Made by a program: the position numbers and the translations under genes. This document shows positions 1 through 12,701 of a stretch of DNA of 20,800 bases, in pieces. Origin of the DNA: an uncultured bacterium (GTDB taxonomy: Bacteria > Schekmanbacteria > GWA2-38-11 > J061); contig CAZJVM010000046.1 of assembly GCA_964549305.1 (NCBI GenBank), forward strand, positions 1 through 20,800. Reading direction: 5' to 3'. Each line of letters opens with the position of its first letter. The stretch's first letter is position 1. The notes under the pieces were generated by a model. It made no database searches. It saw only the letters and a program-made list of their open reading frames with translations, and was not told where the DNA came from.

Positions 1-936
1 CTTTATGATGTAGCCATCTGCGGCGCTGGGGCAGGGGGGCTTTCGGCATCCATTTTCTGCCGAATGAGAGAAATGAAAACCCTTCTTCTTGACCTGAAAT
101 CAGGCGGAGGACAGATGCTTTCTATATATCCCGCAAAACCTGTAAGGGATTATCCCGCATATCCTGAGATTCCCGCACGGGAACTTGCCCTCAATATGAT
201 AAGACAGACAAAATCTATGGGAATTAAAATCTGCCAAAATGAAAGACTTCAGGATATCACGAAATCCGATGATATTTTTTCAATCCTCACCACAAAAAAC
301 AGCTATAAAACAAAAACCGTCATACTTGCAATGGGAGCGGGAATCTATAACCCGAGAAAACTTGGAATCATAGGCGAAGAGGATTTCTGTGGCAAAGGAG
401 TCACTTACGGAATCCCCTCTATAAAAGAAACGCGGGAAAAAAAGATAATATGCGTGGGCGGCGGAAACAGCTCTCTTGAAACAGCGCTCACCGTGAAAGA
501 CTTTGCCGAATCTGTCACAATAGTGCACAGAAGCAACACGCTTGAAGCCTACGAGTTCTATATAGACGCCGTAAAAGACTCTTGCGTAAAAGTACTTTAC
601 GATTCCGAATTGAAGGAAGTAATGGGAAACGATTCGGTAAAGGAAGCGATAATCTACGACAAGAAAAGTGACGACTACAATAAAGTGGAAGCCGACATAA
701 TCATAATCAATGTTGGAAGCGTGCCTTATTTTCAGAAGATACAAAAATGGGGAATCGGTGTGGATAAGTCAGGCGTAACAGTTGACAGGGAAATGAATAC
801 CTCAGTTCCGGGAATTTATGCCTGTGGTGATATGGTTTCCTACCGGGGAAAACTGAAACTTCTGATTTCAGCAAGCGGAGAAGGTTCCATTGCCGCGGAA
901 TCGGCATTCAAATATACAAAGGAACATTTCAGCTAA
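1..936 (+). CDS. TrxB-fold FAD-dependent oxidoreductase, ferredoxin-NADP(+) reductase type 2 (YumC-like); 5' end lies outside the window
   Basis: Frame is open from base 1 (LYDVAICGAGAGGLSASIFCRMRE..., FAD-binding GxGxxG), so the ATG at 64 is internal. Motifs GGQMLSIYPAKPVRDYP, VILAMGAG, second Rossmann VGGGNS, TSVPGIYACGD and YRGKLKLL match the TrxB/FNR family. No CxxC at the TrxR active-site position (GKGVTYGIP). Confidence 0.85.
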   Translation, partial: LYDVAICGAGAGGLSASIFCRMREMKTLLLDLKSGGGQMLSIYPAKPVRDYPAYPEIPARELALNMIRQTKSMGIKICQNERLQDITKSDDIFSILTTKNSYKTKTVILAMGAGIYNPRKLGIIGEEDFCGKGVTYGIPSIKETREKKIICVGGGNSSLETALTVKDFAESVTIVHRSNTLEAYEFYIDAVKDSCVKVLYDSELKEVMGNDSVKEAIIYDKKSDDYNKVEADIIIINVGSVPYFQKIQKWGIGVDKSGVTVDREMNTSVPGIYACGDMVSYRGKLKLLISASGEGSIAAESAFKYTKEHFS

Positions 937-2119
937 AGGGCAAAAGGGAAATTTTTAGAGTCGTTCCTCTGCCCTCGGAGCTTTCAATGCCAACCCTTCC
1001 GCCGTACTTCATTACAATCTGATTGACCACGGAAAGTCCCAGACCGAACCCTTCTCCTTCCGGACGCGATGTATAAAAGAAATCAAACACGGAATTAACC
1101 TTATCTTCGTCGATTCCTACTCCGCTGTCGGCAATCTCGAGCACTACGTACCCGCCTTCTCCATATCCCCGAATGCTGACATTCCTTTCTTCGGACAAGG
1201 AGACTGCCTGAAAAGCATTCATAAGAATGCTTACTGTAACTTGCCTCAACTCCCACAATGACCCTTTCACCGCGGGAAGGTCTTTCGGCAAATCCTTAGT
1301 TACGTTTATATTGTTTTCTTCCTTCATTCTCTTTAACAAAGGAAGGGTTTTTTCGATAACCTCATCCCAACTCACAGCGACTATTTTATCCTCTTTCACC
1401 GGTTTGGAGTATTCAAGGAGATTGCCAACCACATTACTGCACCTGTTTCCGCCGTCGATTGCAATATCCACAAATTTGTCAAGTTTCGCCTTCAATCCTT
1501 TTTCCGAATAAAAGGACTCCTTTAAATTTTCCAGGTCATTAACCTTCACGCCCTTCTGAGATAATTCTTCGAATATCTTTTTCCCAAAACGGTCAATTTC
1601 TCTTCTCAAAAGCTGAAGATTGGCTATTACTCCCGTAAGCGGGTTATTAATCTCGTGCGCGACTCCGCCTGCAAGACGACCTATGGACGCGAGTCTCTCC
1701 CTGTTCAACATTTCTTTTTTGAGAGAGCTGAGTCCTATGATGCTTTCCGCTCTTGTTCGAAGCTCATAGGCATTTATGGGGCGTACTATACAGTCGTCCG
1801 CGCCAAGACTAATTGCCTTCGCCTTCTCTTCTATTTCACGAAGAGAAGAAATGAATATAACAGGAATAGCGCGTGTTTCCACTTTTTCCTTTAATTTCTG
1901 AAGGACCCTGAATCCGTTCATTGAAGGAATGATATCATCGAGAATTATAAGGTCTGCGCCATTATCGTTTATGAATTCAAGAGCTTTCCCAGGTTCCCTG
2001 AAAGCGCGAACATTATACCCAGACGGTGAAAGGCTATCAGAGATTTTTTTTGAGGAATTCTCGGAGTCATCGACAACTACCACGGAAACATCTTCGGAAG
2101 TCTTTGTCACCTCAACCAT
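929..2119 (-). CDS. Cytoplasmic REC-histidine kinase hybrid (N-terminal receiver + HisKA + HATPase_c)
   Basis: Receiver VVVVDD...DLIILDDIIPSMNG; H-box GVAHEINNPL; N-box ILMNAFQA; G1 IADSGVGI; F-box VFDFFYTS; G2 GFGLGLS. No TM segments. Overlaps the nitroreductase stop, and converges on the FNR with an 8-bp overlap. Confidence 0.9.
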   Translation of the reverse strand: MVEVTKTSEDVSVVVVDDSENSSKKISDSLSPSGYNVRAFREPGKALEFINDNGADLIILDDIIPSMNGFRVLQKLKEKVETRAIPVIFISSLREIEEKAKAISLGADDCIVRPINAYELRTRAESIIGLSSLKKEMLNRERLASIGRLAGGVAHEINNPLTGVIANLQLLRREIDRFGKKIFEELSQKGVKVNDLENLKESFYSEKGLKAKLDKFVDIAIDGGNRCSNVVGNLLEYSKPVKEDKIVAVSWDEVIEKTLPLLKRMKEENNINVTKDLPKDLPAVKGSLWELRQVTVSILMNAFQAVSLSEERNVSIRGYGEGGYVVLEIADSGVGIDEDKVNSVFDFFYTSRPEGEGFGLGLSVVNQIVMKYGGRVGIESSEGRGTTLKISLLPFS

Positions 2120-3352: not shown

Positions 3353-4036
3353 TTATTTATCCTTATACATATCCACACGGGGAATTACTTCATATTGGAT
3401 ATCATCAAGTTTTTGCCTGATTATTTCTTCGATTCGTTTATCTTCTTCCGTCCGGATAACACTGTTAATTTCATCGAGCACTTTTTCTTTCCACTTGTTG
3501 CTTGCCACGGCGATTTCCCTGTCAGATTTTAAATCTTCATCGGAAACCTTCTCGAGGTTTTCCTTCATCGAATCCATATTTCTGTTCACCACACCTATAA
3601 TCCTGTCTTTGAGCGCTCTTTCCAGTTTTTCCTTCATCAGGATTACGTCCAGTGACTCGAGAAATTCATCGGAATCGAATCCTATGTGGTCTATTCTTAC
3701 AGTAATGTCTTCATCAAGAAGTTCATACCGCATTTTTTCAGCAGAGTTTTTTCTCCAGGAACGAATATAATAATTTTTACTGCCGTCAGTGGCCTTTATA
3801 AACGATTCATTGTTGGGTTCGGAAAAATAACCTCTCGAAAGTATTTCATTTTCCAATATTTGAAGAAGTGAAATTTTATGTCCGCGATGCCTGTTGTAAA
3901 AATCCCTGCGGTCATCTTTTTCTATCTCCTCTATATGTTCGCCTTCTCCGGTAACTTTATATTCCGGACAATCATCGAATTCAGTGATTTTCATTGCACT
4001 TCCGCATTCAAAACAAACAAGAATTTCATTATCCAT
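3353..4036 (-). CDS. Hypothetical protein with N-terminal CxxC and HxxH (possible C2H2 metal site)
   Basis: 227-aa ORF with AGAGGA RBS, 24 bp downstream of the HD-GYP gene; VCFECG and RHRGH motifs; charged helical C-terminus. Family not recognised. Confidence 0.75.
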   Translation of the reverse strand: MDNEILVCFECGSAMKITEFDDCPEYKVTGEGEHIEEIEKDDRRDFYNRHRGHKISLLQILENEILSRGYFSEPNNESFIKATDGSKNYYIRSWRKNSAEKMRYELLDEDITVRIDHIGFDSDEFLESLDVILMKEKLERALKDRIIGVVNRNMDSMKENLEKVSDEDLKSDREIAVASNKWKEKVLDEINSVIRTEEDKRIEEIIRQKLDDIQYEVIPRVDMYKDK

Positions 4037-4060: not shown

Positions 4061-5161
4061 TTATTTAAAAGGATCTAATTTATCTTCATCTATTAATCTC
4101 AGAAGAATACTCACAAGTTCTGCGTCAAACTGAGTTCCCGCATTCATCTTGAGTTCTTTTATGACTTCCTCTCTGCTGAGTGCCTTTCTGTAGGGTCTGT
4201 CGCTTGTCATCGCCTCAAGGGAATCTGCAAGACAAACTATCCTTGAAGCAATGCTTATCTCATTTCCCGCCAATCCGTCGGGATAACCCTTCCCGTCTAT
4301 TCTCTCGTGATGGTGAAGCACCACATCGGAAATCAGCGAAGACATTTTTAGGGGGTCAATCAGTTCGAAACCGCGCTCCGGATGTTCCTTGATTAAACGC
4401 CAGTCATCTTCCGTGAGAGGCGTTTTTTTCATGTATGCATCACCTATCCCGATTTTTCCAATGTCGTGAAGAAATGACGCGACTTGTATCTCTTTGTTCT
4501 CTTTTTCCGAAAACCCGTATTCGTCGGAGAGAATATCAGCATACATAGAAACTCTGCTTGAATGCCCTTCGGTAAATATGTCATGACTTTCAAATGTGCA
4601 GGAGAGTATTTTGACAAACTCCGTAAAATCTTCATCTTCAACTTTTTTATTTCCGCTTTTGCTGATGAGAAGGTCCTTTAAATGACTTCCCGCTTCCTTT
4701 GATTTCAGGATGTTATATTCATTGTCATCACTGTTATACTTTGGGTCTAATTCTTTTATTCTGGAGAGAAAATCCTTCAACTGAAGATTGACCACTCTCC
4801 TTTCCGCAGCTTTTCTGATTACGGAAATTATCTCAGCCACATTGAAAGGTTTCGTAATATACTCATAGACACCCCAGTGAATAGCGCCTATCGCGCTTTT
4901 AACGGATGAGTTTCCTGTTATGACGATGACTTCGATTTCGGAATTGATTTTCTTTATCGCCTTTAGTACTTCGTTGCCGTCGAGCCCGGGCATCCTCAAA
5001 TCAAGTGTGACGATGTCTATATTTTCGTTTTTGACAATATCCAGCGCTTTGTTGCCGTTTTCAGCTATAAAGACATTATACGAGGGCTTAAGAATCATTC
5101 TTAAAGATTCTCTTGGTCCTATTTCGTCATCAACTATGAGTACGTTTTGATTCATTTCCAT
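4061..5161 (-). CDS. Response regulator with HD-GYP domain (putative c-di-GMP phosphodiesterase, RpfG-like)
   Basis: Intact receiver (LIVDD, TLDLRMPGLDG, VITG, YITKPF) followed by TEGHSSRV, LHDIGK, HPERG, HHERIDGKGYPDGL and AMTSDRPYR; AGGAGG RBS at 5167-5172. Confidence 0.93.
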   Translation of the reverse strand: MEMNQNVLIVDDEIGPRESLRMILKPSYNVFIAENGNKALDIVKNENIDIVTLDLRMPGLDGNEVLKAIKKINSEIEVIVITGNSSVKSAIGAIHWGVYEYITKPFNVAEIISVIRKAAERRVVNLQLKDFLSRIKELDPKYNSDDNEYNILKSKEAGSHLKDLLISKSGNKKVEDEDFTEFVKILSCTFESHDIFTEGHSSRVSMYADILSDEYGFSEKENKEIQVASFLHDIGKIGIGDAYMKKTPLTEDDWRLIKEHPERGFELIDPLKMSSLISDVVLHHHERIDGKGYPDGLAGNEISIASRIVCLADSLEAMTSDRPYRKALSREEVIKELKMNAGTQFDAELVSILLRLIDEDKLDPFK

Positions 5162-5212: not shown

Positions 5213-5228
5213 TGCAATATCTGTGCCA
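5213..5228 (-). promoter_or_regulatory. Sigma54 (RpoN) -24/-12 promoter for the HD-GYP gene
   Basis: Minus strand reads TGGCACAGATATTGCA = TGGCAC-N5-TTGCA with exact GG-N10-GC spacing. Predicted +1 near 5202, about 40 nt before the ATG; adjacent to a sigma54 activator gene. Confidence 0.88.
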
Positions 5229-5324: not shown

Positions 5325-5361
5325 TGTCAATTTTGAAGAAAAGATGTGTTCAAATTTGAAC
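5325..5361. promoter_or_regulatory. Candidate tandem upstream activator sequences (bEBP enhancer)
   Basis: Perfect 14-bp palindrome GTTCAAATTTGAAC (5348-5361) and imperfect copy TGTCAATTTTGAAG (5325-5338), 23 bp apart, centred about 130 and 152 bp upstream of the predicted sigma54 start. Confidence 0.55.
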
Positions 5362-5505: not shown

Positions 5506-6858
5506 TTAAACATCAATCCCCAGCTTGTCCATTTTGTATTTTAAAACTCTGCGGCTTATTCCAAGAATATCCGCCGCTCGTGTTTGTATATTATTTGATT
5601 TTTTAAGCGCTTCCATAATCAGCTCTTTTTCAAGCTCGCTCTCCGCTTCTTCAAAAAGTATTCCGTCAGAGGCGACGCTGTTTTTCAACTCATCGAAAAG
5701 CGTCCGCTTCCTGAGATGCTCGGGCAAATCGCTCTTCGTTATCTCGGTTTTTTCCGTAAGGGTAATCAATCTCTCGATTGTATTTTCAAGCTCTCTTATA
5801 TTGCCGGGCCATTTGTAGTTGGTCAATATCTTCATCGCTTCAATGTCAATCCTCTTCTCTTTGCATTTTAACTCCCGTGATTTTCTTTTTAAAAAATGCT
5901 TTACAAGCGGCTCAATATCGTTTTTTCTGTCTCTAAGAGCAGGCACATAAATCGGAACAACATTGATTCTATAGAAAAGGTCTGAACGAAATCTACCCTC
6001 CGAAACCTCTTTTTCGAGATTTTTATTGGTTGCGGTAATCAATCTTATATCTATTTTAACGGGAGGACGACCTCCTACTCTTGTAAGCTCTCTTTCCTGA
6101 ATAACTCTTAATATCTTCGCCTGCATTGAAAGGGGAATATCGGCAATTTCATCAAGGAGAAGCGTTCCTCCGTGAGCCATTTCAAATTTTCCTATTCTCT
6201 TGGAAACAGACCCCGTGTAAGCGCCCTTTTCCGCGCCGAAAAGTTCACTTTCAATTAACGCTTCGGGAATGGCAGCACAGTTAATGGCAATGAACGGTTT
6301 CTTCTTCCGATCGCTTAAATTATGAATGGCTCTGGCAATGAGTTCTTTCCCCGTACCGCTTTCTCCCGTTACAAGCACTGTTGACTCGGTCCCGGCAACT
6401 TTTTCTATTATCCCGAATACTTCCTTTATCTTGTGGGAGTTGCCAACTATATCTTCAAAGACGTGTTTGCCGGAAGTATCTTTTTGTGACGGAGTTATTC
6501 TTTCACGGAAAACGGCATTATCAACTACCGTTTTGATTTCCGAAACGCAAAAAGGTTTTGTTATATAATCATAAGCCCCTATCTTCATTGCAGAAACGGC
6601 AGTTTTAAGGGTTTTGGTAGCTGTAAGCATAATGACCTTAATTTTTTCATTTTCCGATTTAAGTCTTTTCAGTATTTCAATTCCGTCAATGCCCGGCAAA
6701 ATAATATCCAGAAGAACGACATGGGGGTTTTCCTTCTCTACCATTCTGAATGCTTCTTCCCCGTTGCTGGCAAGAAAAACATTATAGTCATTTTTAAAAA
6801 TTATTCTCAGAGACTCTCTTACACTTATTTCATCGTCAACTATGAGCAGCTTTTTCAA
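5506..6858 (-). CDS. Sigma54-dependent response regulator (NtrC/AtoC family: REC + AAA+ + Fis-type HTH)
   Basis: Receiver LIVDD/LLDIILPG/LTA/YITKPF; Walker A GESGTGKE; INCAAIPEALIESELFG; loop 1 GAYTGS; Walker B LLLDEI; FRSDLFYRIN; WPGNIRELEN; HTH TRAADILGISRRVLKYKM. TTG start. Confidence 0.95.
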   Translation of the reverse strand: MKKLLIVDDEISVRESLRIIFKNDYNVFLASNGEEAFRMVEKENPHVVLLDIILPGIDGIEILKRLKSENEKIKVIMLTATKTLKTAVSAMKIGAYDYITKPFCVSEIKTVVDNAVFRERITPSQKDTSGKHVFEDIVGNSHKIKEVFGIIEKVAGTESTVLVTGESGTGKELIARAIHNLSDRKKKPFIAINCAAIPEALIESELFGAEKGAYTGSVSKRIGKFEMAHGGTLLLDEIADIPLSMQAKILRVIQERELTRVGGRPPVKIDIRLITATNKNLEKEVSEGRFRSDLFYRINVVPIYVPALRDRKNDIEPLVKHFLKRKSRELKCKEKRIDIEAMKILTNYKWPGNIRELENTIERLITLTEKTEITKSDLPEHLRKRTLFDELKNSVASDGILFEEAESELEKELIMEALKKSNNIQTRAADILGISRRVLKYKMDKLGIDV

Positions 6859-6885: not shown

Positions 6886-8748
6886 TTAATCGCTTTTCCC
6901 CAGTGAGAGCAGATACCCGAAAGAATCTTCAATATCTTTTAAATAGAAAACAGACCCTTCACATTTTCCTACTGCTTTTTGTGCCAAAATGACCGTCATC
7001 TCTTCCAACTCTTCGCTCTTCTTTATCAATTCTCCCGATTTTTCATCAACGCAAATCTTTAATTCAACTTTGTCGTTAAAACCGTTATCACCGGAAATTT
7101 GGGACATAATTCTTATTATATTCCCCCGGGTGCAGTAACTGACAAGTGAAAAAAGAAGATTTTCGATGGAATACTTGATAACCTTTTTGGGGAATTTTAC
7201 TTTGGGATTGTCCTTGTCAAGCTGAAGCTCAACAGTCAGACTCTTTTCACGAAAAATATTCTTCTTTTCTTCGATTATCTCATTTACAACTTCATTGAGA
7301 GGAAATTCTTCTGCAACTGCGTTGTTGACGTTTTCATATTGCATAATTCTTTCTATGAGCAAATCAATGCGGTCGATATCACTATTCACTATTTGAAAGA
7401 AGTCCTTGCGAAATTCCACATCATCATATTTCTCCGGAAGAAGGCTTGCAAAAGTTTTGATTCCCACAAGAGGATTCTTAATTTCATGGGCAAGATTAAT
7501 CACTATGTCTGACGGCAGTTTCTCTTCATCCCCTCTGTCAGACGCTGTCTCGGGAAAACTTTCAGTCACAGGGTTTCTTACGGAATTTTCACTATGAGAA
7601 GATATTTCTTCACCTCCGGCATCTTCGCAAATCTTAAGGGGCATAAACTTCACATCATTTTCATTAACAGTATCCGATTCGCAAAATAATATACTTCTTT
7701 GAACAACGCTAATCAGTTCATCGATATTCGAAGGCCAGATGTATTTTTGCATAATATCAATCGCGGAAGAAGAGAAGGACTTAAAGGGGATGGAGTATTT
7801 CGAGCAATAAAATTCAGCAAGGTTATTGACTATCAGAGGGATTTCATCAGTCCTTTCACATAGAGAATGAAGTGAACATTCGGCAACTGACAAGCGATAA
7901 AAAAGTTCATCGTTTATCTTTTTTTCATTCAATAGCTCTTTGAGAGAAAAACGTGAAGACGCGATGATTCTCAACCTTATATCGGTCACTTCTTTTTCAT
8001 CAACCTTCAGATTTTCCATTCCGTCAAGAAGGGAAAGAATTTGCTCTTTAGATTCAGTGGAAAGGGCATCGAAATTCTCAATATATAGAGTTCCGCAAAT
8101 GAAGTCATCTTGTCGCAAAGTATTGACAATGCGGGAAAAGATTCCATTATCTTCATCGATGCCGTTAATTTTTAAAAACCCGAAACTTCTCATAGATGAA
8201 CCGTCATGAATCATTCTTGCAACATCCGCCCCTCTCATACCTCTTGCGCATTTAAAGAAAACCGGTATTCCCGTTTTCATGAGGAGCGATAATTTTTTAT
8301 TGGCGGGCATCCCGATAAAGGGATTCATATTTATGAAAAGTCCACTGCCGGCATTTCCCGGTGCCATGGCTATACTTCTTTTTTCTTTTAAATCATTAAA
8401 CAGAGATTCCGCCACATCGGGTATCGATAAAACAGAATCCGCTTTTCTGGCAAGGCAGATGACTTTTCCGAAAGGCAGGAAATAGGAAATTGCCCTGTCA
8501 TTTTCAGGTGATATGGTAATTAACGCTTTGTCATCGAGCTTTTCCGGAATATTGCCTAAAGCGGAAAAAAACTCCTTTAACGGTTTGTCAGTCCCAAATA
8601 TTATCAATTCAGCATCACTGCCCGATAAAATTTCACCAATTCCCTTTTCCGCGGCACATTCGGTGACTTCATAATCATCTTTTAAAACAATTCTCAGAGA
8701 TTCCCTGTAAATAAGAGAGTCGTCAATTATTAATACTTTTTTCTTCAT
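6886..8748 (-). CDS. Atypical signalling chimera: pseudo-receiver + degenerate sigma54-type AAA+ + HisKA (His retained) + degenerate HATPase
   Basis: N-terminus VLIIDDSLIYRESLRIVL; AAA+ remnants GTLYIENFDAL, LRIIASS, ELFYRLSV, YIWPSNIDEL; H-box LAHEIKNPLVGIKTF. C-terminal region lacks recognisable N, G1 and G2 boxes. ATG abuts the kinase stop (TAAATG). Confidence 0.8.
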   Translation of the reverse strand: MKKKVLIIDDSLIYRESLRIVLKDDYEVTECAAEKGIGEILSGSDAELIIFGTDKPLKEFFSALGNIPEKLDDKALITISPENDRAISYFLPFGKVICLARKADSVLSIPDVAESLFNDLKEKRSIAMAPGNAGSGLFINMNPFIGMPANKKLSLLMKTGIPVFFKCARGMRGADVARMIHDGSSMRSFGFLKINGIDEDNGIFSRIVNTLRQDDFICGTLYIENFDALSTESKEQILSLLDGMENLKVDEKEVTDIRLRIIASSRFSLKELLNEKKINDELFYRLSVAECSLHSLCERTDEIPLIVNNLAEFYCSKYSIPFKSFSSSAIDIMQKYIWPSNIDELISVVQRSILFCESDTVNENDVKFMPLKICEDAGGEEISSHSENSVRNPVTESFPETASDRGDEEKLPSDIVINLAHEIKNPLVGIKTFASLLPEKYDDVEFRKDFFQIVNSDIDRIDLLIERIMQYENVNNAVAEEFPLNEVVNEIIEEKKNIFREKSLTVELQLDKDNPKVKFPKKVIKYSIENLLFSLVSYCTRGNIIRIMSQISGDNGFNDKVELKICVDEKSGELIKKSEELEEMTVILAQKAVGKCEGSVFYLKDIEDSFGYLLSLGKSD

Positions 8749-10875
8749 TTATTGCCGTTCGTTCTTTCTCCGTTCCACTGAAGCGGGATTTCCCGGCAGG
8801 TCAATTATAAACACACTGCCTTTACCCATTTCGCTTTCGGCTCTTATGTTTCCCCTGTGTTCCTGAATAATCTGATGGCTTATGGAAAGCCCAAGACCCG
8901 TCCCTTCATGCTTTTTAGTAAAAAAAGGATTAAATATACTCTCAAGGTCTTTTTTTTCTATTCCCGTCCCCGTATCGGCAAACTCAATCTGCGCATAAAT
9001 CCTGTCGTCGTGACGCACATTTCTTGTGGTAATTTGTATCTTTCCGTTTTCGGGTGTTGCCTGTATCGCGTTTAATATTATATTCAAAAATACCTGTTTA
9101 ATCTGTTCCTTGTCAACAGCTACGAGACGCAAATTTTCGTCATAGAACTTTTCAATTCTTATCAATTTCTTTTTTACCTGATTTTCAATAAGGAATATTA
9201 TATTATCTACAAGTTCGTTGAGGTTTTCTTCGGCAAGATTCGGCTTAGAAGGTTTGGAAAAATCGAGGAGTGCCGTTAAAAGCGTGCTTATCCTGTCAAC
9301 TTCGGCGGTAGTTATTGTGAGAAAATCGGTTCTGAACTCTTCGTCGTTTATCCTCTCGGGCAGAAGCTGAAGAAAGGTTTTTATGGAAACAAGAGGGTTT
9401 CTTATTTCATGAGCCATTCCCGCCGCAAGTTGTCCCAGCGAAGCGAGCCGGTCAGACCTTCTAATTCTGTTTCTCGATTCTTTCAGGCTTTCATATAATT
9501 TGGCATTTTCCACATATACGGCGAATTGATTGGAAAGAGTCTGAAAAAGCTTCAATTCATTTTCATTGTATATTTCCCCGTTCATTTTCTTTCCCATACA
9601 CAATGAGCCGATAAGGTTTGAGCGGTTAAGAATGGGGACGCAGATTTCCGCGCTTAGCTCACTCATTTTTTCGAGTATATAGCCGCTTCTTGGAATATAG
9701 GGGCTTTCCATTATTTCCTCCTTCACGACAACGGTATTTTTTTCTTCAAGCCACCGGAAGAAAAAATCGTTTTTCTCATATTTTGTATCATTTGAATTGC
9801 CGTTCATGCCGCAGGAGGACTCAACTTTGAATTCCCCCGTTTCTTCGTTTAAAAGGACAATACTCGCGTGGTCGATATCAAGCTTTTTAACCACTGTTTC
9901 AACCATAGTGTTCAACAGGGGTGCCATTTCGAGCACTTTGATCATGGCATCACTCAATTCGTGAATGGTTTCCTCGTGATTTACCTGTTTTTTAAAAAGG
10001 ATATTTTCCAGAGTTCTTTCCGTTCCTATTTTCGCTCTCGGAAAAATAAGCCCAACTAATATAAAAAGGGCAAGCATCATGAGGCTGAAAGGTAAGTTAA
10101 CGAAACCGAAGACCTTCTCCTGTGACCATAGGAGGATCGCATAACAGGGCACAATGAGAATAAGGACTATCACGGAGTAGGTTAGACTCTTCTTTATGAC
10201 AAAGGATATGTCAAGAAGCTTGTATTTTATAATAGCATAACTCACGATAAAAACAAAAATCGCCGTAAAGGGAGACGCTACGGGAACTGCGCTATCAAAA
10301 ACAAGGGGGAAAAATGAAGTAAGACCGCTCATATATCCGAAAAAGGACGCTATAAAAAGATATCTTATCTGATTCTTTCTTATTGCCATCTCAGTAACGA
10401 GATATTCCGAAACAAGCTCATAGAGGATAAGCATTGCCACGGTAATGAAAACTATGAAATGAATAATATATGCCTTTTCCGGAATTTCATAAAAACCAAT
10501 ATTAGCGCGCCTCTCCACACCGCTGATGAAATAAGGAGTATAACTTAAAATGAGTTCCGCGAAACCGGCTATATAAACGCCGATAAGAAGCCCCTTCCTC
10601 TCCTGAAGGTTATTAATGAATGCCGTAATGAAGTGCATACTGAAGATAGGGACAAATATCGCTCCCGCGTAAATAATCCTGCACCAGAAGAGCGCTTCTT
10701 CGGGAGTGGAAGCAATAGATATGCTGAAGCGTCCGTACTGCCACAAGGATGCCGCAATGCAGAGAAGAAGCCAGGTGACGTTGGCAATATTGCGCTTGTT
10801 TTTCCAGAATACGAAAAAACCCGACGAAAGGGTAAAAACCGTTCCGAAAAGAAATCCTAGGGAATAAACGCCCAT
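8749..10875 (-). CDS. Membrane sensor histidine kinase (N-terminal 7TM-type multi-pass region + GAF + HisKA + HATPase_c)
   Basis: About 9 hydrophobic segments in the first ~280 aa; GAF-like ICVPIL...LIGSLCMGKKMNGEIYNENELKLFQTLSNQ; H-box MAHEIRNPL; N-box NIILNAIQA; G1 FADTGTGI; IFNPFFT; G2 GTGLGLS. Confidence 0.93.
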   Translation of the reverse strand: MGVYSLGFLFGTVFTLSSGFFVFWKNKRNIANVTWLLLCIAASLWQYGRFSISIASTPEEALFWCRIIYAGAIFVPIFSMHFITAFINNLQERKGLLIGVYIAGFAELILSYTPYFISGVERRANIGFYEIPEKAYIIHFIVFITVAMLILYELVSEYLVTEMAIRKNQIRYLFIASFFGYMSGLTSFFPLVFDSAVPVASPFTAIFVFIVSYAIIKYKLLDISFVIKKSLTYSVIVLILIVPCYAILLWSQEKVFGFVNLPFSLMMLALFILVGLIFPRAKIGTERTLENILFKKQVNHEETIHELSDAMIKVLEMAPLLNTMVETVVKKLDIDHASIVLLNEETGEFKVESSCGMNGNSNDTKYEKNDFFFRWLEEKNTVVVKEEIMESPYIPRSGYILEKMSELSAEICVPILNRSNLIGSLCMGKKMNGEIYNENELKLFQTLSNQFAVYVENAKLYESLKESRNRIRRSDRLASLGQLAAGMAHEIRNPLVSIKTFLQLLPERINDEEFRTDFLTITTAEVDRISTLLTALLDFSKPSKPNLAEENLNELVDNIIFLIENQVKKKLIRIEKFYDENLRLVAVDKEQIKQVFLNIILNAIQATPENGKIQITTRNVRHDDRIYAQIEFADTGTGIEKKDLESIFNPFFTKKHEGTGLGLSISHQIIQEHRGNIRAESEMGKGSVFIIDLPGNPASVERRKNERQ

Positions 10876-10881
10876 TTTATT

Positions 10882-12135
10882 TTATATCTTCTTAAAAATG
10901 CAGACTGCATTATATCCGCCGAATCCGAAAGATATTTTCATTACATTCTTCAAAACCTTTTCATTCCCTTGTGACGATACGAAATTAAGGTTGCACTCAG
11001 GGTCAGGGTCTTCGAGATTTAGCATTGGATGGAGAAAATTATTTTCCATCATCAACAGGCAAGCTGCAATTTCAAGAGAACCGCAACCGCCCATTGCATG
11101 ACCTGTGTAAGGTTTTGTCGCGCTTACAAAGATACTGCCCGACAATTCTCCGAAGACATTTTGAATAGTAAGCGCCTCCGCCCTGTCATTATGAAGGGTC
11201 CCGCTTGCGTGGGGATTTATATAGTCTATTTTTTCAGGATTGAGTTTTGCGTCTTTAAGGGCTATCTTCACGGCGTTTTCCGCCTGCTTTGCGTCAGGGA
11301 GAGGAGTCATTACGTGATAGGCGTCTGCCGTTGCGCCATAACCCGTTATTTCGGCATAGATTTTGGCTCCCCGTCTTTTTGCCCTTTCCATCTCCTCAAC
11401 GATAAAAAGCGCCGAACCTTCGCCGAAAACAAGCCCGTCTCTTTTTCTATCAAAAGTCTTGTAAGCTTTTTTCGGGTCTCCTTCCGCAGTGCTAAGCAGA
11501 TTCACATTGGCAAAGGTGCCCATTGCAAAAGGAGTAACAGGTGTTTCCGAACCGCCTGCAATCACTATCTCGCTTCTTTCAGACCTTATCAATTCCGCCG
11601 CTTCACCTACTGCCGAAGTAGATGACGCGCAGGCAGTTGTCAATGTGGAACAGGGACCGGATATCCCGAGATTAATCATTATCTGGCTTGCCGCTGAGCT
11701 TGGAATAATCGATGTGGCAAAAAAGGGATTTATCCTCTTATAGCCCTTTTCCATAAACAAAGCATGCTGGCGCTCGCCTATAGCAAGCGCTCCCACGGAA
11801 GTACCCACAATCACGCCGATTCTGTCTCTTTCCTCAGTATCGAGATTCAGGTCTGAGTCTTCGACTGCCATCTTTGCCGCGGCAATCCCGAATTGCGCAA
11901 ACCTGTCCAACCTCTTCGCGCTTCTTGCCGGAATAAAATCCTCCGGATTAAAATCATTGGCTTCCGCGGCAAATTTGCACGGTAAAGACGACGCATCGAA
12001 ACTCTTTATATAGTCAACACCGGTAATACCGTTTTTCAGAGAATGCCAAAATTTTTCTTTTCCTATACCAATTGCTGATACGACTCCAAATCCTGTAATT
12101 ACGGCACGCTTTCTCAAAAAAATTTCCTCCTTCAT
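10882..12135 (-). CDS. Beta-ketoacyl-ACP synthase II (FabF-type ketosynthase); no acpP or other fab gene adjacent
   Basis: RAVITGFGVVS, DRFAQFG, catalytic Cys in TACASS, His in NPHASGT, His in KPYTGH, GLVFGEG, SFGFGGYNA. Confidence 0.92.
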   Translation of the reverse strand: MKEEIFLRKRAVITGFGVVSAIGIGKEKFWHSLKNGITGVDYIKSFDASSLPCKFAAEANDFNPEDFIPARSAKRLDRFAQFGIAAAKMAVEDSDLNLDTEERDRIGVIVGTSVGALAIGERQHALFMEKGYKRINPFFATSIIPSSAASQIMINLGISGPCSTLTTACASSTSAVGEAAELIRSERSEIVIAGGSETPVTPFAMGTFANVNLLSTAEGDPKKAYKTFDRKRDGLVFGEGSALFIVEEMERAKRRGAKIYAEITGYGATADAYHVMTPLPDAKQAENAVKIALKDAKLNPEKIDYINPHASGTLHNDRAEALTIQNVFGELSGSIFVSATKPYTGHAMGGCGSLEIAACLLMMENNFLHPMLNLEDPDPECNLNFVSSQGNEKVLKNVMKISFGFGGYNAVCIFKKI

Positions 12136-12173: not shown

Positions 12174-12701
12174 TCATTTCAGGTAGTTATCTCCAAATTT
12201 TTCCTTCATTTTTTTTTCTTCGAGAAGTACTCTCACTAAAAGAAAAGGCATATATGAAACCATTGCCAAAAGCAGGGTATAAAAAGCGTTTGCAACGAGC
12301 GGAAAACTCAATATCTCCAAAAGCACGGAAAAATAATAAGGATGCCTGGTTAATTTATAAAGCCCTTCTCTTATGAGAGGATGATTTTCGCGAATTTCAA
12401 TATGTACGCTGTGATATTTACCCAAAGTCTTTATCGCCTTGTTTCTTACGAAAAGCGCCGCAAAAAAAAGCGCAAATCCTATGGCGGAAATTACGGGATT
12501 AATGTCTCTTTCAATAATCAGAAATTCGGATATAACGGATATAACCAGAAGAATATGAGTTATCATCAGAGCATTGAATGTCCATAGATAATGTATTGTC
12601 CCCTTTTCCTTTTCCCTTTTCGAAAAAGTTTCCGCAAGACGCTCGATTGACATAAAGGCAATAAAAATAAAAATAATTCCAATATATAAATTATCAGTCA
12701 T
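12174..12701 (-). CDS. Isoprenylcysteine carboxyl methyltransferase (ICMT/PEMT) family membrane methyltransferase
   Basis: Several TM helices; AIKTLGKY, HPLIREGLYKLTRHPYY and RVLLEEKKMKEKFGDNY match the ICMT/Ste14 SAM-binding C-terminal motifs. Confidence 0.88.
   Translation of the reverse strand: MTDNLYIGIIFIFIAFMSIERLAETFSKREKEKGTIHYLWTFNALMITHILLVISVISEFLIIERDINPVISAIGFALFFAALFVRNKAIKTLGKYHSVHIEIRENHPLIREGLYKLTRHPYYFSVLLEILSFPLVANAFYTLLLAMVSYMPFLLVRVLLEEKKMKEKFGDNYLK

Follow-up and report, generated by a model that had tools for sequence, protein, structure and literature searches.

Gene X and its locus

The DNA analysed here (the window) is a stretch of 20,800 nucleotides, positions 1 to 20,800 of contig CAZJVM010000046.1 in assembly GCA_964549305.1, from an uncultured bacterium of the Schekmanbacteria. 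It carries gene X (6886..8748 on the (-) strand, stop codon included), whose 620-residue product is, from its translation, Pfam matches and structural models, a fusion of a pseudo-receiver, a pseudo-AAA+ domain, a dimerisation and histidine phosphotransfer (DHp) domain and a pseudo-catalytic and ATP-binding (CA) domain. Upstream of X is the cognate sensor kinase (8749..10875, (-)), in which Pfam finds HisKA_7TM, GAF, HisKA and HATPase_c and no receiver. Downstream is the cognate NtrC-type sigma-54 activator (5506..6858, (-)), which by Pfam and alignment has a receiver with Asp51, an intact AAA+ domain, an L1 loop reading GAYTGS and an HTH_8 domain. Both neighbours give full canonical Pfam matches.

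The start codon of X, an ATG at 8748, comes immediately after the kinase gene's TAA stop, and the activator gene starts 27 nt past the stop of X, behind a GGAG-type ribosome site. An earlier note on this DNA, made from the letters alone, had described the open reading frame (ORF) as intact, abutting the kinase stop and unlike a pseudogene. This holds: the frame at 6886-8748 (-) runs for 620 codons without interruption, and intact homologues exist. The strings which that note quoted (ELIIFGTDKP, CARGMRGADVA, YIENFD and LAHEIKNPL) are all present in the translation.

Domain anatomy of the X protein

Pfam recognises three regions in X: Sigma54_activat at residues 219-290 (E 3.4e-9), which corresponds to profile positions 95-166 and covers only the C-terminal half of the profile, AAA_lid_14 at residues 298-367 (E 4.3e-12), and HisKA at residues 418-473 (E 4.4e-10). 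Response_reg, HATPase_c and HTH_8 are not matched in X even at E<=1. The full-length AlphaFold model, with a predicted local distance difference test score (pLDDT) of 80.4, comprises a receiver, an AAA+ alpha/beta subdomain, a lid, a disordered linker of 40 residues, a DHp hairpin and an alpha/beta CA domain. In Foldseek, the N-terminal half of the model matches the receiver and AAA+ domains of NtrC1 at E 2e-20 over 391 columns, and NtrX, PspF and FleQ are also matched in the fold search. A separate C-terminal model (pLDDT 90.2, predicted template modelling score 0.86) matches the DHp-CA fold of HK853, YycG, DivL and RetS at E ~5e-12, and its CA part superposes on the CA domain of ThkA with Z 19.2 and a root mean square deviation of 2.2 A over 134 residues. 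On these predicted structures, X keeps the receiver fold, the AAA+ activator fold, the DHp and the CA fold despite its lost catalytic sites. The losses described below were read from alignments against the two neighbouring proteins.

The receiver-like domain comprises residues 1-125 (8374..8748, (-)) and is identified by alignment, model and Foldseek as a (beta-alpha)5 fold; in the full-length model the secondary structure of residues 3-127 is consistent with it. Glycine at the phospho-Asp column, as read in the earlier note, is confirmed by alignment to the neighbouring activator (Gly52). The same note found the KP motif missing, which is correct for the proline; the lysine is kept (RKA). The DD pair (IIDDS) is retained, and the first helix, alpha1, reads RESLRIVLKDDYEV and resembles alpha1 of the neighbouring activator. 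In the family profile, the match begins at position 4.

The alpha/beta subdomain of the sigma-54-activator-type AAA+ part spans residues 140-295 (7864..8331, (-)), as identified by Pfam, alignment and Foldseek. Four defects listed in the earlier note are borne out here: Walker A is broken (CARGMRG, without the Walker A Lys), Walker B has YIEN where hhhhDE is expected, the alignment shows a deletion of the L1/GAFTGA stretch, and the helix-turn-helix (HTH) domain is absent, HTH_8 being unmatched at E<=1. In addition, sensor II reads NIDEL instead of NIREL, an Arg to Asp change. The lid, residues 296-370 (7639..7863, (-)), is defined by Pfam and the family alignment and is the second best conserved part of X; Y336, W338, N341, E344 and R351 are invariant in the family alignment, and the first Arg of the PLRER motif is Cys in the window's X. 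An acidic linker follows at residues 371-410 (7519..7638, (-)), which is unconserved and predicted to be disordered (pLDDT 29-36).

The HisKA-type DHp domain, residues 411-476 (7321..7518, (-)), is identified by Pfam, model and family alignment and is the best conserved part of the protein. Its helices comprise residues 413-474 in the models, and its H-box, LAHEIKNPLVGIKTF, contains His421 (codon 7486-7488) and Asn425 at position H+4. The helix-1 residues H+7, H+11 and H+12 (V, T and F) are identical in X and the cognate kinase. The CA domain, residues 477-620 (6889..7320, (-)), has a Bergerat-type fold with neither the second N-box Asn nor any of the G1, F and G2 boxes. The earlier note had all of its N, G1 and G2 boxes missing, which stands except for the first N-box Asn, kept as N530.

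The X family

A word-index search with X returns nine proteins of similar length and domain content, with identities of 99, 48, 35 and 26-30%. An exhaustive search returns 25 matches at E<=1e-30, and many further proteins of about 600 residues aligned over one stretch across both halves. In Pfam, 57 of the 60 top representative matches combine a sigma-54 AAA+ domain with a HisKA domain behind it and lack HTH_8; among these 57, 56 lack any HATPase_c match and one has a sub-threshold match. The remaining three have other architectures. Against the PDB, the family profile matches NtrC1 at E 1.6e-69 with its N-terminal half, and ZraS at 3e-29 and ThkA at 1e-22 with its C-terminal half; none of the 60 matches listed of 241 is a solved structure joining both halves, each lying within positions <=385 or >=387. 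The earlier note had allowed that homologues might be absent or frameshifted, that the His might not be conserved and that the central region might not match sigma-54 activator profiles. Intact homologues are found, the His is present in 62 of 63 aligned members, and the central region matches both in Pfam and, through the family profile, in NtrC1.

Motifs were counted over the 63 aligned members, and the phospho-Asp column over the 54 rows with a residue there. That column is other than Asp in 50 of the 54 rows (G 38, E 7, D 4, A 3, N 2), and PF00072 is matched in 10 of the 57 relatives at E<=0.001, in five of them above the cut-off. The position of the Walker A Lys is occupied by K in 25 members, Q in 14, R in 12 and other residues in 12, the first Walker B position is Asp in 9/63, and the sensor II Arg is present in 12/63. 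The protein of Ca. Desulfofervidus auxilii is one of the Walker-A-positive relatives. The L1 stretch has 0-11 residues in all 63 members, versus 20 in the activator. Conservation is high elsewhere. The two PLRER arginines are present in 59/63 and 57/63 members, and in the H-box the H+4 Asn is found in 63/63, the His in 62/63 and an acidic H+1 residue, the Glu/Asp of kinases, in 57/63. Helix 1 retains H+7 in 60-62, H+11 in 62 and H+12 in 56 members. Among the genome loci, both the His and the H+4 Asn are kept in 26/26, and the acidic H+1 residue in 18/26 (Arg in seven, Lys in one). The earlier note had X keeping only the phospho-His; this is too narrow, since the H+4 Asn, H+7, H+11 and H+12, the PLRER arginines and the Y-W-N-E-R set of the lid are conserved as well. 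Its description of the ATP boxes of the CA domain as dead extends to the whole family: the second N-box Asn, the G1 Asp and the G1/G2 glycines are unconserved throughout, and HATPase_c is above the cut-off in none of the members scanned.

The universal core of the family consists of the lid, the DHp and the CA fold, and decay elsewhere is mosaic, affecting Walker A in the lineage of the window and, in short forms, the receiver together with the acidic H+1 residue. The window's X is more degenerate than the family consensus: its losses include the Walker A Glu and glycines, the Pro-Phe that follows the receiver Lys and the first PLRER Arg. In Thermodesulfobacteriota, X occurs in forms of about 640 residues and in receiver-less forms of about 515. 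The latter subgroup (L108, L109, L111, L112, L114, L117, L118, L126-L130, L137 and L139) has a full Walker A (GxxGTGK) and an Arg in place of the acidic residue beside the His (HRIKNP). In three of 26 relatives (L138, L140 and L150), X is in two ORFs, AAA+/lid and DHp/CA, broken at the disordered linker; this may be a natural split or an assembly error, and the two halves may be separable modules. Several short metagenome proteins with only lid, DHp and CA begin near the PLRER motif, and may be assembly artefacts or gene-call artefacts on short contigs.

Family records are named sigma-54 interacting (transcriptional) regulator, NorR, AtoC, DctD, histidine kinase or hypothetical protein, and come from Ca. 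Schekmanbacteria, Thermodesulfobacteriota, Nitrospirota, 'Deltaproteobacteria' and Ca. Desulfofervidus auxilii. The ESM Atlas holds two clusters of the same architecture, commonest in Binatota and Myxococcota. Proteobacterial loci from a contig scan with LAHE[ILF]KNP[LM] were rejected as members, being mostly NtrB-NtrC gene pairs joined; only 2 of the 79 loci (L013 and L014) hold a true single-ORF member. Neither a receiver-AAA+-HisKA protein nor this cassette was found described in the literature searched, which leaves most subscription journals outside its coverage. The X family is conserved but unstudied and unnamed.

Selection and rate of change

X is 35% identical to its counterpart in G002, another genome of the order, versus 67% for the kinase, 66% for the activator and 73% for the ketoacyl synthase encoded upstream of the kinase. 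Against the same-genus genome G001, the N-terminal half of X is 34-37% identical and the neighbours 75% and 84%. By domain, identity to G002 is 64% for the DHp, 43% for the lid, 36% for the receiver, 33% for the AAA+ part, 25% for the CA domain and 15% for the linker; the order is the same over 36 family members (DHp, lid, AAA+ about equal to receiver, CA, linker). The ratio of nonsynonymous to synonymous substitution rates (dN/dS) on homologues, a check proposed in the earlier note, was taken on pairs from Thermodesulfobacteriota, of which three of seven were saturated, as was X versus G002 at 35% identity. The four unsaturated pairs give 0.054, 0.327, 0.265 and 0.075 for X and 0.02-0.21 for its neighbours; the value for X is 1.3 to 4 times that of the neighbours and always below 1. 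X is under purifying selection.

Origin of X

Within its own genome, the DHp of X is most similar to that of the neighbouring kinase (43% over 68 residues, 65 bits; the next match has 41 bits), and the only other match of the pseudo-receiver is the beta1-alpha1 part of the neighbouring activator (first 26 residues, 62%). The likeness to both neighbours seen in the earlier note is real; it is a property of the whole family and not that of a local decayed copy. Over 15 trios, the identity of the X DHp to the kinase is 0.445 for cognate and 0.451 for non-cognate pairs, and that of the X receiver to the activator is 0.250 and 0.247, respectively. Recent local duplication or gene conversion from the neighbours is ruled out by this equality of cognate and non-cognate identities. 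Because X is no closer to its own neighbours than to those of other loci, the fusion must be old, and it is shared across several phyla.

Two quick trees agree with this. The DHp-CA tree unites the 15 X rows in a single clade, with support of 100 in the SH-like approximate likelihood ratio test (SH-aLRT); X and the cognate kinases are separated from 18 other kinases of the genome (SH-aLRT 99.7), and the branching of the X clade mirrors that of the kinase clade, which is co-divergence. In the AAA+/lid tree, 12 of the 15 X rows were scored, three being lost to the motif filter, and lie on one side of a branch with SH-aLRT 99; the branch of the window's X is very long (3.0), and the X AAA+ part is not specifically sister to the cognate activator clade. 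From these clades, X arose once, long ago, and has been inherited with the cassette.

Conservation of the cassette

X is present without internal stop in all five genomes of the window's order, being cut by the contig end in G001, and the gene order is the same in all five: ketoacyl synthase, one or two kinases, X, activator and HD-GYP regulator. In G003 and G004, two tandem 7TM-GAF kinases lie upstream of X (L010 10670-14976; L011 1885-6188). Outside the phylum, 301 genomes of Thermodesulfobacteriota were sampled, and 24 of them carry a match to X at E<=1e-95, in 25 loci; some matches contain in-frame stops. In 20 of the 22 assessable loci, the ORF immediately before X on the same strand is a kinase (19 complete and one partial ORF; the exceptions are L106 and L116). 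The activator lies directly downstream in 19 of the 22 and is partial in two more; L106 has none. In the converse direction, the same genomes were searched with the activator orthologue, and 27 of the 30 best loci are assessable. X is directly upstream of the activator in 26 of the 27. The single locus without X, probably a paralogue, scores lowest and combines a canonical GAFTGA with an ordinary kinase.

The wider cassette of the window begins with a membrane methyltransferase of the ICMT/PEMT family (12174..12701, (-)) and a FabF-like beta-ketoacyl synthase (10882..12135, (-)) directly upstream of the kinase, a position conserved in both phyla. Behind the activator, after a gap of 344 nt, comes a receiver-HD-GYP response regulator (4061..5161, (-)), a putative phosphodiesterase of cyclic di-GMP (c-di-GMP), followed by a protein of 227 residues without known family (3353..4036, (-)). 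The synthase, the ICMT-like methyltransferase, the 7TM-GAF kinase, the HD-GYP regulator and the 227-residue protein all recur in the other phylum. The synthase/methyltransferase and HD-GYP set is reminiscent of lipid-signal circuits such as Rpf/diffusible signal factor (DSF) or 3-hydroxypalmitic acid methyl ester (3-OH-PAME).

Likely output of the cassette

A perfect sigma-54 -24/-12 element, TGGCACAGATATTGC (5214..5228, (-)), lies 53 nt upstream of the receiver-HD-GYP start and is the sole zero-mismatch match within the window. One-mismatch elements occupy the same position in G002 and G003 (L009 12195-12209; L010 7088-7102), giving three of three genomes checked, and rpoN is present in the window's genome. 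The element is likely the output promoter of the cassette, and its position suggests that the activator drives the HD-GYP regulator of c-di-GMP phosphodiesterase type. A perfect palindrome of 14 bp, GTTCAAATTTGAAC (5348..5361, without strand), located some 120 nt upstream of the promoter, is a candidate binding (enhancer) site for the activator, a role inferred from the sequence only.

The L1 loops of the cognate activators, which are an orthologous group, are non-canonical, namely GAYTGS in the window and GAFTDA, GAFTNA, GAFTHA, GAYTNA and GSFT[D/N]A elsewhere; canonical GAFTGA is found in none of the cognate orthologues of the window and of L092-L154. Such variants are listed as activation-compatible in a survey of Desulfovibrio activators (PMC4641369). 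The wiring likely runs from the kinase to the activator, from there to the sigma-54 promoter, and on to the HD-GYP regulator and the 227-residue protein. The receiver of the HD-GYP regulator is about 48-52% identical to orthologues of the activator's receiver, and because of this closeness the regulator may be a second substrate of the same kinase.

Proposed mechanism

The domain anatomy, site losses, family, synteny, purifying selection and single origin described above are the frame within which a function must be sought. We tentatively favour X as a kinase-dead third component whose DHp would act on the receivers of the cassette, mainly as a phosphatase or negative modulator, a reading that we judge nearly as probable as its negation. 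The helix-1 positions H+7, H+11 and H+12 are regulator-specificity positions. Willett & Kirby (PMC3510030) found, for four HisKA kinases, that only kinase activity depends on the acidic residue and only phosphatase activity on the Thr/Asn. A kinase-dead, receiver-docking DHp is favoured because the H+4 Asn is invariant, the H+1 acid is dispensable and the docking positions are those of the cognate kinase.

The ancestor of X would have been a fusion of a regulator paralogue (receiver, AAA+ and lid, without HTH) with a kinase-transmitter paralogue (DHp and CA, without sensor). X has since been stripped of all catalytic sites dependent on ATP or on an acceptor Asp, and would have retained the determinants of interaction and phosphatase action, namely DHp helix 1 (with the His, the H+4 Asn and the docking positions), receiver alpha1 and the AAA+ lid. 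The DHp dimer of the present protein may dock the activator encoded downstream at its phosphorylated receiver, probably do the same with the receiver-HD-GYP protein, and remove or withhold phosphate as a dedicated phosphatase or competitive sink. The pseudo-receiver might face the kinase as a decoy for a DHp site, and the pseudo-AAA+/lid might tether X to the activator ring or cap that ring. In this way X would set the threshold and the reset rate of the sigma-54-dependent output.

Several points weigh against this proposal. HisKA phosphatase activity is often stimulated by a nucleotide-bound CA domain, and the CA domain of X cannot bind nucleotide. The near-invariant His would exceed the need of a pure phosphatase and suits phosphotransfer or a sink no less well. 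Since the cognate kinase carries an HEIRNP motif itself and is probably bifunctional, there is no obvious need for a separate phosphatase. The role of the AAA+/lid is left vague although the lid is the second most conserved part, some members may still bind nucleotide because about 25 of the 63 keep the Walker A Lys, and X evolves about twice as fast as its neighbours.

The His would also be accommodated by a ChpT/Spo0B-like role of X as histidine phosphotransferase or phosphate sink, with His421 phosphorylated in trans by the kinase CA domain or by back-transfer from a receiver, and the phosphate stored or passed between the activator and the HD-GYP protein. Besides the retention of the His (62/63 members, 26/26 genome loci), this would explain a DHp joined to a CA fold without an ATP site, as in ChpT and Spo0B, in a cassette with two receivers of closely related sequence. 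A His-Asp-His-Asp relay would, however, be without an obvious first Asp, because the kinase has no receiver and the receiver of X has no Asp; the acidic H+1 residue is variable, and X has no Pfam match to ChpT-type families at E<=1. The earlier note had put forward a phosphotransferase or sink, or a dominant-negative subunit; the conservation pattern leans to a phosphatase or negative modulator over a relay, and we regard phosphotransfer as rather unlikely. Alternatively, X may act on the kinase, either by heterodimerisation of the two DHp domains, as in RetS-GacS and ChrS-HrrS, or by placing its pseudo-receiver on the kinase, as in Osp-CckA, with the effect of blocking or redirecting autokinase activity. 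X and the cognate kinases share about 45% identity in the DHp, their DHp-CA parts group together to the exclusion of the 18 other kinases (SH-aLRT 99.7), alpha1 of the pseudo-receiver resembles that of the activator, and precedents are at hand in the ChrS pseudokinase with HrrS (PMC9491836), in Osp with CckA (PMC9430884) and in the RetS-GacS co-complex structure entry among the fold matches. Yet the 15 trios show no cognate-specific similarity, the invariant H+4 Asn would go unexplained, and the pseudo-receiver cannot be the core of the matter because it is missing from the forms of about 515 residues. This is a still less likely account.

Phosphate chemistry would be irrelevant if X were an anti-activator that joins or caps the activator hexamer through its AAA+/lid, in a NifL-like or dominant-negative manner. 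The conservation of the lid, with its invariant Y, W, N, E and R, and of the PLRER arginines (59/63 and 57/63) is what such a role would call for, a mixed ring would be defective because X has no GAFTGA loop, and NifL is presented as a kinase-like anti-activator of NifA (PMC12998190). We consider it improbable nonetheless: the most conserved part is the DHp and not the AAA+, no reason is given for the invariant His and Asn, the window's X lacks the first PLRER Arg and the family-conserved Walker A glycines, and its AAA+ part is not specifically related to the cognate activator clade. That X is still an active kinase with unconventional ATP binding, for example in the AAA+ domain where Walker A is kept, can appeal to the Walker A Lys in 25/63 members and to the His and Glu of most, but is very hard to credit with HATPase_c above the Pfam cut-off in no member scanned, the G1 and G2 boxes and the second N-box Asn absent family-wide, and no Walker A at all in the window's X. 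A functionless, decaying gene would evolve faster than its neighbours, as X does, and might show two ORFs, as in 3/26 relatives, or the in-frame stops of some matches; against the intact frames in all five genomes of the order, a dN/dS well below 1 and a deep family with conserved synteny, this reading is close to refuted.

A broader picture, in which we place little confidence, makes X the hub of an obligate three-protein complex and a mirror-image decoy of both partners, in what may be a circuit from a lipid signal to c-di-GMP like Rpf/DSF. The pseudo-receiver would fill the docking site of the kinase, the DHp would hold and dephosphorylate the activator receiver, and the loop-less AAA+/lid would cap the activator ring. 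If true, the kinase, X and the activator would form a built-in threshold and reset device of a kind undescribed for two-component systems.

Comparison with known systems

ChpT of Caulobacter and Spo0B of Bacillus act on receivers and not on ATP, and sit in His-Asp-His-Asp relays fed by a phosphorylated receiver. In architecture only, they resemble X in having a DHp hairpin with the His and a CA fold without ATP binding. They differ from it in being small and without receiver or AAA+ domains; X is fused behind a pseudo-receiver and a pseudo-AAA+ domain, and its cassette has no evident first Asp. X has no Pfam match to them at E<=1, neither protein is among the 50 fold matches listed, and the cassette has a kinase without receiver and two regulators downstream.

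NifL controls NifA by protein contact and not by phosphorylation, with PAS sensors, a nucleotide-binding GHKL domain and a His that it is not known to use. Like X, it is a kinase-derived protein encoded beside a sigma-54 activator (PMC12998190). Unlike NifL, X has a dead GHKL domain, an invariant His and Asn and an AAA+ domain of its own; Pfam and alignment find neither PAS domains nor ATP boxes in X, which sets it apart from the NifL type.

RetS (with GacS), DivL and the ChrS pseudokinase share with X a kinase fold whose kinase activity is lost or unused; their target is a partner kinase or regulator. In RetS and DivL the HATPase_c domain is still recognisable, and structures of both are among the fold matches of the C-terminal half of X. 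Heterodimers of the ChrS pseudokinase with HrrS are reported in PMC9491836. None of the three has an N-terminal sigma-54-type AAA+ domain or pseudo-receiver, in contrast to X. Osp is a receiver-fold protein that binds and inhibits the CckA transmitter and gives a precedent for a decoy role of X (PMC9430884), but it is a single domain, whereas X has its pseudo-receiver as one module among four, absent from the short forms.

The parent systems are the NtrB/NtrC and AtoS/AtoC pairs. The halves of X are homologous to both partners, and an H-box of the LAHEIKNPL type also occurs in NtrB. In X, however, the halves are fused in reverse of the signal flow, with the regulator first, and the catalytic sites are lost except for the His and Asn.

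Significance

Two-component systems are usually read as a kinase and a regulator; here a third, catalytically stripped protein derived from both partners is kept beside them, in at least two phyla with loci examined, under purifying selection. We describe X as a fused double pseudo-enzyme and the obligate third component of an old three-gene cassette, which would work like known kinase-fold and receiver-fold modulators in a new architecture. X should not be filed as a sigma-54 activator, histidine kinase or response regulator, because the defining catalytic features of all three fail, and its public names predict impossible activities because it lacks a GAFTGA loop, an HTH and an ATP site alike. 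In practical terms, the annotation is corrected and the family defined. Should the phosphatase or decoy proposal hold, X would add a new architecture to the few pseudo-kinase and pseudo-receiver modulators (ChpT, NifL, RetS, DivL and Osp), and would be a natural example of a signalling pair that evolved its own buffer by duplication and fusion. The system is tractable in vitro, all three proteins and the likely target promoter being defined.

Further genes and side observations

The 227-residue protein starts with a Cys-x2-Cys motif, has an RGH motif and matches no Pfam family. It follows the HD-GYP gene also in G002 (49% identity) and in a Thermodesulfobacteriota locus (L125 11927-12709; 33%, E 2e-25). 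In Thermodesulfobacteriota, a FabF-like synthase, often with an ICMT/PEMT-like methyltransferase, precedes the 7TM-GAF kinase (L121 1125-5231; L123 4361-5602; L125 4051-5319), and L121 additionally carries a FadL-like porin and an NAD-dependent epimerase/reductase. Further downstream in the window, 929-2119 (-) encodes a receiver-HisKA-HATPase_c protein of 396 residues, a receiver-controlled kinase by its translation and its blast hits to kinases. By blastp, the window's genome (G000, 2.9 Mb) holds at least 16 sigma-54-activator-like and about 30 kinase-like ORFs, which is a large number of signalling genes for a genome of this size.

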